In this document: positions 4,771 to 34,977 of the stretch, one piece after another | Layout: every line of letters starts with the position of its first letter | How positions within the stretch are numbered: position 1 is the stretch's first letter | Origin: Thermoleophilia bacterium | GTDB taxonomy: Bacteria > Actinomycetota > Thermoleophilia > Gaiellales > Gaiellaceae | Reading direction: 5' to 3' | Assembly (NCBI GenBank): GCA_025936595.1 | Contig: JAICTB010000001.1 | Coordinates: 1-34,977 of the forward strand | Length of the DNA stretch: 34,977 bases | Notes under the pieces: generated by a model | What the model was told of the DNA's origin: nothing | Seen by the model: the letters and a program-made list of their open reading frames with translations, nothing else | The model's database searches: none | Translations under genes and position numbers: made by a program

Positions 4771-4843
4771 GGCGAGGTAGCTCAGTTGGTAGAGCACACG
4801 GCTGAAAACCGTGGTGTCGCCGGTTCAAGTCCGGCCCTCGCCA
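4771..4843 (+). tRNA. tRNA-Phe (anticodon GAA), no encoded CCA
   Basis: A cloverleaf can be read directly from the sequence. Acceptor stem is GGCGAGG/CCTCGCC, the D-arm is GCTCAGTTGGTAGAGC, and the anticodon stem CACGG/CCGTG carries the loop CTGAAAA. The T-arm is GCCGG TTCAAGT CCGGC and the discriminator is A at 4843. Confidence 0.95.
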
Positions 4844-34388: not shown

Positions 34389-34763
34389 ATGGGTCGTCGC
34401 GTCCTCGCTGCTCTGCTCACGGTCGCCGCGGGGTTCGCCGACGCGCACGGCGCGCACGGTCTTGCGTTCGATGCGCTGCTCGGCGCGATCCCCTTCGCGG
34501 CGGTGTCGTCGCTGGTGGCCTTCGGCGCGTACCTCGATCGCCGCGAGGACACGGTCGCCGGCCTGCAGGCGCTCCTGTGGACACTGTCGCTCGCGCTCCT
34601 CGTCCTGTCGTGCGCCGCGCGCTCGCCGGCGACGGAGGTGCAGACGCTCCCGCCGCTCGGCTGGTCGGCGCTCGTCGCCTGTCTCGGCGTCTTCGCGATC
34701 AAGGCCTGCGTCGGCGCCGCGCCCTTCCTCCGCCGCCTGGCGCTGCATCCCGCAAAGCCCTGA
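34389..34763 (+). CDS. Small hypothetical membrane protein (about 4 hydrophobic segments)
   Basis: The 124-aa product starts at the ATG at 34389 (MGRRVLAALLTVAAGF). Codon third positions are GC-rich. It is divergent from the MBL gene across a 71-nt spacer. Confidence 0.5.
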   Translation: MGRRVLAALLTVAAGFADAHGAHGLAFDALLGAIPFAAVSSLVAFGAYLDRREDTVAGLQALLWTLSLALLVLSCAARSPATEVQTLPPLGWSALVACLGVFAIKACVGAAPFLRRLALHPAKP

Positions 34764-34813
34764 GCCGCGCCCCCGTCCGAGGCGCTATGTCCAGTCCGGA
34801 CATCACGGGGTCT

Positions 34814-34977
34814 GGAGCTCATCTCACAATGACCAGCCATGTCGCCTGGCCGCGCTGCGCGGCACGAGGCTGTGTCCTCAGTCGCCCCGATAGCTTCGGC
34901 TATCGGGGCTCCCTGCGTCCTTGCCTCGCACCGCGCAGCGCACCCAGATCAACGGGCGTCATTGTGAGACGAGCTCC
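34814..34977. repeat. 164-nt three-stem imperfect palindrome (candidate structured ncRNA with 6S-like architecture, or a MITE-like palindromic element)
   Basis: The outer arms 34814-34833 and 34958-34977 pair at 19/20. The middle arms 34846-34870 and 34923-34947 pair at 21/25. The apical stem 34884-34894 / 34899-34909 pairs at 11/11 around a TTCG loop. A 13x13 non-complementary internal loop separates the middle and apical stems. The region is non-coding. Confidence 0.6.

Follow-up and report, generated by a model that had tools for sequence, protein, structure and literature searches.

A long hairpin in an uncultured Gaiellaceae genome is very probably a MITE with the ends of an IS5-family insertion sequence

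The window, i.e., the whole stretch of 34,977 nt that was analysed, ends in a long hairpin downstream of a gene encoding a 124-aa membrane protein (34389-34763, plus strand), which served as the anchor for finding the locus in relatives. A tRNA gene at 4771-4843 (plus strand; 74.7 bits to RF00005) was the sole Rfam match in the whole window at gathering thresholds. The hairpin is built of three stems, all of which a sequence-only reading had located correctly: an outer stem, in which 34814-34833 is 95% complementary to 34958-34977; a middle stem, whose left arm (34846-34870) is 84% complementary to its right arm (34923-34947); and an apical hairpin (34884-34909) with a perfect 11-bp stem (34884-34894/34899-34909, read from the sequence) and a TTCG loop. 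The mismatches of the middle stem become G.U pairs on the minus strand. RNA folding of the 164 nt gave -107.1 kcal/mol for the plus strand (z-score of -11.7) and -129.5 kcal/mol for the minus strand (z-score of -14.8), and 0 of 200 dinucleotide-preserving shuffles per strand folded as well on either strand. The hairpin is far beyond chance. The same reading had the stem end at the window edge, but an independent assembly (L001; GCA_025928635.1), which extends 18 nt past the window end with the tail ...GAGCTC-CAG-ACACGCGCGCGAGATC, revealed another 4 bp of pairing (GTCT/GGAGCTC...GAGCTCC/AGAC).

Both strands of the 13x13 bubble between the middle and apical stems had been seen to carry GTCCT in the same sense, and this pentamer proved to belong to a 9-nt direct repeat, read from the sequence on the plus strand, with copy 1 (CTGTGTCCT; 34870-34878) on the left bubble strand and copy 2 (CTGCGTCCT; 34913-34921) on the right. 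The repeat is conserved in all copies of the element; in the copy at locus L027 (see below), read in orientation A, the better-folding strand, it is a perfect 10-mer, AGGACGCAGG, on either side of the apical hairpin. Since direct repeats cannot pair with each other, a repeat of 9 to 10 nt on both arms keeps the bubble unpaired. It is possibly a duplication that arose when the apical hairpin, of ~35 nt, entered the loop of a palindrome both shorter and older; alternatively, it could be a pair of protein-binding sites. Whichever origin applies, the bubble is no evidence for an open-promoter mimic.

The exact 124-aa product was found on 12 contigs, and the protein has 761 homologues, some of which are named Gaiellaceae or Thermoleophilia by their sources. 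Every contig of the element locus stops inside or just after the hairpin, which is expected if assemblies break at a repeat. In relatives whose protein is 97% identical (L009 to L016), the gene is separated by 41 nt from a convergent nuoN-like gene (Proton_antipo_M); the spacer to the same convergent gene is 10 nt at 90% identity (L017 to L020), and at 77% identity (L021) it is 191 nt and filled by a different tandem palindromic repeat. None of these three sets contains the hairpin, and therefore it is a lineage-specific insertion in the window. The relatives also lack the short target unit described below, so they offer no clean empty site. The repeat of L021 (4376-4566; JGI 3300062838) consists of ~3.5 tandem copies of a ~55-nt unit, GGCAACCGGGTTCASGCCTTTCCGTCACGAACCCGGTTCCGCTGCGC, with an inverted repeat of its own, and it seems that palindromic repeats land recurrently in the convergent spacer that separates the 124-aa gene from nuoN. 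The 18 nt past the element (CAGACACGCGCGCGAGATC; L001, 10589-10607) have no clear match to the nuoN 3' end of the relatives; this mismatch and the unequal CTG/CAG triplets around the element may reflect a rearrangement between element copies at the window site.

When metagenomes were scanned with the 20-mer of the arm, six loci were obtained (L022 to L027), and five of them hold further copies of the element, all with unrelated flanks and three from one sample (Ga0308176). Full copies are present in L025 (5316-5479) and L026 (7508-7671), both 97% identical to the window copy, and in L027 (305-467), which is 85% identical; the copy in L022 is 98% identical and cut by the contig end. L023 (1167-1246) carries an internally deleted derivative of 80 nt that has kept both terminal repeats and the right half; its left half, bubble and apical hairpin are gone. 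Both orientations occur among the copies, and the full copies in L025 and L027 lie inside contigs with normal flanks on both sides. The terminal arms of 19 to 20 nt are 95% complementary in the window and 100% complementary in L025, L026 and L027. With six loci from a metagenome scan, the copy number per genome may be low. In the genome collection, the arm 20-mer had 1 match, with ~9 expected by chance (an estimate that assumes uniform composition). This match, in Arthrobacter terrae (L008), was discarded: it falls within a copper-resistance-type ORF, at the 3' end, and a partner arm is missing. Parts of the interior searched on their own were found neither elsewhere in the window nor in any fetched locus, and the element gave no match by BLAST against plasmids and phages and none in the viral contig scan.

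The element proper comprises the 162 bp between the flanking triplets (34815-34976; GAGCTC...GAGCTC), and orientation A corresponds to the minus strand of the window. It carries no gene and no transposase. A plus-strand frame that starts at an ATG in the terminal repeat (CAATGAC; 34829-34977) is open through the whole element; by hand translation, the equivalent ATG frame on the other strand meets a stop after 20 codons, and the indels of the L027 copy would break the plus-strand frame.

The sixth locus, L024, which comes from another metagenome than the window, pointed to the origin of the ends. Here, what comes after the 19-mer GAGCTCGTCTCACAATGAC is not the palindrome but sequence that codes for the C terminus of a transposase, and the stop codon of the transposase lies within the repeat (...E-S-L-stop, GAG TCA TTG TGA). 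The left terminal inverted repeat of the window element (GAGCTCATCTCACAATGAC; 34815-34833, plus strand) matches the right end of this insertion sequence (IS) (693-711) in 18/19 positions, and the right terminal inverted repeat (34958-34976, minus strand), whose reverse complement is GAGCTCGTCTCACAATGAC, matches it in 19/19. The left end of the IS agrees with the MITE arm in 11/19 positions (manual count). Judged by these matches (19/19 and 18/19), both MITE arms are of the IS right-end type. The interior of the element has no similarity to the IS, its coding region included. The IS encodes a 134-aa DUF4096 ORF and an overlapping DDE_Tnp_1 ORF, and its transposase matched PF01609 with an E value of 4e-21 and PF13340 with one of 1e-23; the two ORFs cover positions 2-111 and 101-257 of the NCBIfam model NF033580, "IS5 family transposase," which matched the second ORF with 126.3 bits (cutoff, 110). 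Transposases 76 to 79% identical to that of L024 are encoded in elements of ~0.9 kb (about 900-930 bp), whose right end reads GA..GGTCTCACAATGA(C/T) and whose left end differs (GAACCGGT....AATGAAGGGACC); the core of the family end, GTCTCACAATGA, is present in four further IS relatives.

To the left of the element, 34787-34811 is the left part of a short repeated unit, ATGTCCAGTCCGGACATCACGGGGT, that holds the left half of a palindromic target, and it is followed by the triplet CTG (34812-34814), a putative 3-bp target duplication. On the right, position 34977 is the first base of the triplet CAG; the remainder of the triplet and the right half-target ACAC lie beyond the window, in the L001 tail. 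The triplets are identical in 4/8 insertions of MITE and IS, namely CAG/CAG around the IS of L028 and CTG/CTG around the IS of L031 and the MITEs of L025 and L027; the other four differ by one base: CTG/CAG around the window MITE, where the central base differs, CTG/CAG and CTG/CGG around the ISs of L030 and L024, respectively, and CTG/CTT around the deleted MITE of L023. Direct repeats are known to decay with time (PMC10969869). Outside the triplets, the halves of the palindrome, GGKGW and WCMCC, were always found. An uninterrupted target unit, CATGTCCATTTCGAACATCACGGGGTCTGACCCC, is present in L026 (7391-7425), as a paralogous unit ~90 nt upstream of the L026 copy, and was used as a model of the empty site: when the element and one triplet are removed from the window, the remaining ...ACATCACGGGGTCTGACAC... 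is colinear with the intact unit, ...ACATCACGGGGTCTGACCCC....

The same kind of target is used by the ISs. The IS of L028 sits at GGTGA-CAG-IS-CAG-TCACC, and nine further exact copies of the 13-mer GGTGACWGTCACC surround it (1030-1095 and 2067-2211), with an expectation of 0. These 13-mers are arranged two by two, with a repeated linker (CGATGTACACG...ATGAAAGCC) in an array that resembles REPs or BIMEs, and the IS has split a tenth copy. In L031, a second and more distant IS5-family element (1182-2047) lies beside the first IS; it starts with GAGCTGCTAACACATTGAAGC, is again preceded by GGGGACAG and encodes DUF4096 on the minus strand. Targets of one and the same kind thus accumulate related ISs. 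The target palindrome GGKGTCWGACMCC had 0 matches in the 35-kb window, by which we discarded it as a common repeat of this genome. The left flank together with the arm, GGGGTCTGGAGCTCA, resembles Tn3-type ends (GGGGTCTGACGCTCA), but a Tn3-family end was rejected: its GGGGTCTG portion is not constant among the copies and is a piece of the target palindrome, and the associated transposase is of the IS5 family.

Multiple copies, identity of the ends with those of an IS, absence from the relatives and flanking triplets inside a palindromic target together lead us to conclude that the hairpin is, with high confidence, a 162-bp non-coding MITE in a Gaiellaceae genome, whose ends match an IS5-family IS and which was probably moved in trans. 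A palindromic MITE had already been named as an alternative in the sequence-only reading, and the IS5-family arms, the flanking triplets and the internally deleted derivative support it. Measured against a working definition of MITEs taken from PMC10969869 and PMC3184786, every feature that a sequence by itself can display was found, the target duplication in part. The element would move as follows. Both 19-bp ends are copies of the right terminal inverted repeat of an IS5-family IS of ~0.9 kb with two (frameshifted) ORFs. Most likely, an IS of this type located elsewhere in the genome would supply the DDE transposase, which would bind both ends and move the element in trans. Insertion would then take place into the centre of the short palindromic target (GGKGWC-W-GWCMCC) and leave CWG on both sides, as a putative 3-bp duplication. 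The element is otherwise a near-perfect palindrome, and consequently any transcript or single DNA strand that contains it is predicted to fold into a long hairpin. Its mobility, like the role of that particular transposase, is a matter of what the copies, ends and flanks suggest. We class the element as a new family of MITEs, a selfish repeat of an ordinary type, from an uncultured member of the Gaiellaceae.

The two strands of the MITE are not equivalent. A wobble asymmetry noticed in the window, 6 G.U pairs on the minus strand versus 1 on the plus strand, turned out to be kept in every full copy. Orientation A folded as RNA with -129.5 kcal/mol in the window, -125.7 kcal/mol in L025, -126.0 kcal/mol in L026 and -119.1 kcal/mol in L027 (6, 4, 5 and 3 G.U pairs, respectively), and the opposite orientation, B, with -107.1, -107.8, -106.4 and -102.8 kcal/mol (1 G.U pair each). 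In all four, A was better by 16 to 22 kcal/mol, by virtue of the G.U pairs, and DNA parameters for single strands gave about -70 (A) versus -60 (B) kcal/mol. The G.U pairs of orientation A fall into nine distinct alignment columns. All of the one-sided transition differences between copies (5/5) keep a G.U pair in orientation A, and the pairs that are broken are broken by transversions. Over the five sequences, 98.2% of the cells in the alignment are paired; this value drops to 30 to 42% when the partners are slid by 1 to 3 columns. Pair changes on both sides were seen three times, all in L027, and 6/500 shuffles reached three; one of the changes, in the apical hairpin of L027, is G-C to A-U. 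It seems, then, that one single strand of the element is under constraint or that mutation in the master copy was asymmetric. The asymmetry had been read as a hint of selection at the RNA level and of a gene on the minus strand; the asymmetry itself stands and does suggest a single-strand constraint or bias, but an RNA gene is not what follows from it.

A further possibility, which would add to the MITE reading rather than replace it, is that one orientation of the MITE, or of its master copy, was put to use or selected as a single-stranded structure. This could be, for example, an RNA hairpin in 3' untranslated regions with an effect on mRNA stability or with cleavage by a double-strand-specific RNase, as reported for ERIC and Correia elements. 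The better fold of orientation A as RNA and as single-stranded DNA in all four full copies, its nine G.U columns next to the one G.U pair in B folds, the 5/5 retained wobbles and the three two-sided changes (6/500 shuffles) are in line with it, as is the position of copies in intergenic spacers beside gene ends; MITE transcripts whose stable stem-loops affect mRNA stability are documented (PMC3184786). However, most wobbles were inherited from one master copy, which leaves few independent events, and a mutational strand bias in that master copy would yield the same pattern. Moreover, neither a promoter-like nor a terminator-like signal was seen, nor a T-run behind the stem, and orientation A is antisense to the upstream gene in the window and sense to both neighbours in L025, so orientation and transcription are inconsistent in these few cases. 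We therefore regard co-option as unlikely, if still worth considering. Somewhat more doubtful is a stronger version, in which the element family was selected as a folded single strand, a mobile RNA or single-stranded DNA module (e.g., one that an RNase recognizes or that regulates its own transposase or the mRNAs next to it), and in which an IS5-family lineage also evolved insertion into palindrome centres. Sequence-specific insertion into the centres of REP-like palindromes has so far been described for the IS3 and IS110 families.

Readings that dispense with an IS5-derived MITE fare far worse. A palindrome over its whole length, placed among short REP-like palindromes, could be a REPIN-type element, i.e., two inverted REPs moved by a RAYT tyrosine transposase. 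But the arms agree exactly with the end of a DDE-type IS5-family element, even where this end overlaps the stop codon of the transposase, the short REP-like palindromes serve as target and do not form the arms, the insertions are flanked by CWG triplets, and no RAYT gene was present among the fetched loci; we consider a REPIN very improbable. Less credible still is the single-copy structured RNA gene that the sequence-only reading had put forward, such as 6S RNA, an open-promoter mimic that binds RNA polymerase. Its outline of closing stem, central bubble and terminal stem, its length of about 165-170 nt and the better folding of one strand do recall 6S RNA (RF00013). A search of 34600-34977 against Rfam release 15 (4,227 families) on both strands, however, returned nothing at an E value of ≤10, RF00013 included. 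In addition, the hairpin is absent from the same locus in the three sets of close relatives, and it is multi-copy, with five further copies in unrelated flanks and an internally deleted derivative among them; these are the very observations that had been named in advance as speaking against a functional RNA. The arms are identical to the terminal repeat of an IS, and the bubble is a direct repeat. The stems of 6S RNA are irregular, unlike the near-perfect ones of ≥20 bp seen here. A retron msd, an IS110 bridge RNA, an integron attC site and a single-strand origin had been considered from the shape alone and were dropped on account of the IS5 end identity and the multiple copies. Finally, an assembly artefact or replicon end, be it an inverted chimera at a contig end or a hairpin telomere, would fit a hairpin that ends at the last base of the window and a locus at which all contigs stop, but it counts as refuted, since independent assemblies share the sequence, L001 runs 18 nt further, the copies in L025 and L027 lie inside contigs with normal flanks, and the window start lies inside a gene and has no inverted repeat in common with the window end. 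The end of a linear replicon or phage was set aside likewise: the window starts within a gene, and the arm occurs at the hairpin alone.

The MITE reading is of practical use in annotation: although it is very stable, this 165-nt hairpin of an uncultured soil actinobacterium is to be annotated as a MITE and not put forward as a new RNA gene. The reading also accounts for the breaks in assemblies of this lineage at the hairpin, and it documents a pair of IS5-family IS and MITE in Gaiellaceae; no description of the mobile elements of this lineage was found in the literature searched. What remains curious is the insertion into palindrome centres by an IS5-family lineage, the architecture with two right ends and the strand asymmetry of the pairing.

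Insertion into the centre of short repeated extragenic palindromes is a trait that the L024-type IS and its MITE share with ISPpu9 (IS110) and with IS1397 and ISKpn1 (IS3), which belong to other transposase families. ISPpu9 is described in PMC12288879 as an insertion in REP sequences, and ISKpn1 and palindromic units are cited in PMC3184786. A literature search, not an exhaustive one, yielded no report of REP-palindrome insertion by an IS5-family element.

The architecture of the L024-type IS resembles that of the IS427 group. Published elements of this group have 832-865 bp, inverted repeats of 13-21 bp and direct repeats of 2 or 4 bp, and their two ORFs overlap with a frameshift (PMC3281130). 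We compared size (800-1000 bp), ORF layout (two frameshift-joined ORFs) and direct repeats (2-4 bp), and the IS is IS427-group-like in size, ORF layout, ends and short repeats: it has ~0.9 kb, two ORFs that overlap and jointly span a single IS5 transposase model, terminal repeats of ~19 bp that start with GA and short flanking repeats. It differs in its triplet of 3 bp (CWG), compared with the 2 bp common in the Paracoccus examples, and in that it strongly prefers a palindrome of 13 bp as target; the window element, moreover, has no transposase of its own.

The closest parallels to the window element are the palindromic bacterial MITEs ERIC, Correia/NEMIS, Chunjie and QMITE2, the features of which are described in PMC3184786 and PMC10969869. 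Like them, it falls into a size range of about 100-250 bp, ends in inverted repeats with short (here putative) direct repeats beside them, lacks a transposase, is intergenic near gene ends, has size variants that arose by internal deletion and would give transcripts predicted to form very stable long stem-loops. It has no sequence similarity to any of them, nor an Rfam family, and it is G+C-rich, whereas MITEs are typically AT-rich and insert into AT-rich regions according to a 2024 review (PMC10969869). From the known palindromic MITEs, it is set apart by having both ends from the same (right) IS end, by inserting into the centre of a G+C-rich palindrome and by its host, an uncultured member of the Gaiellaceae.
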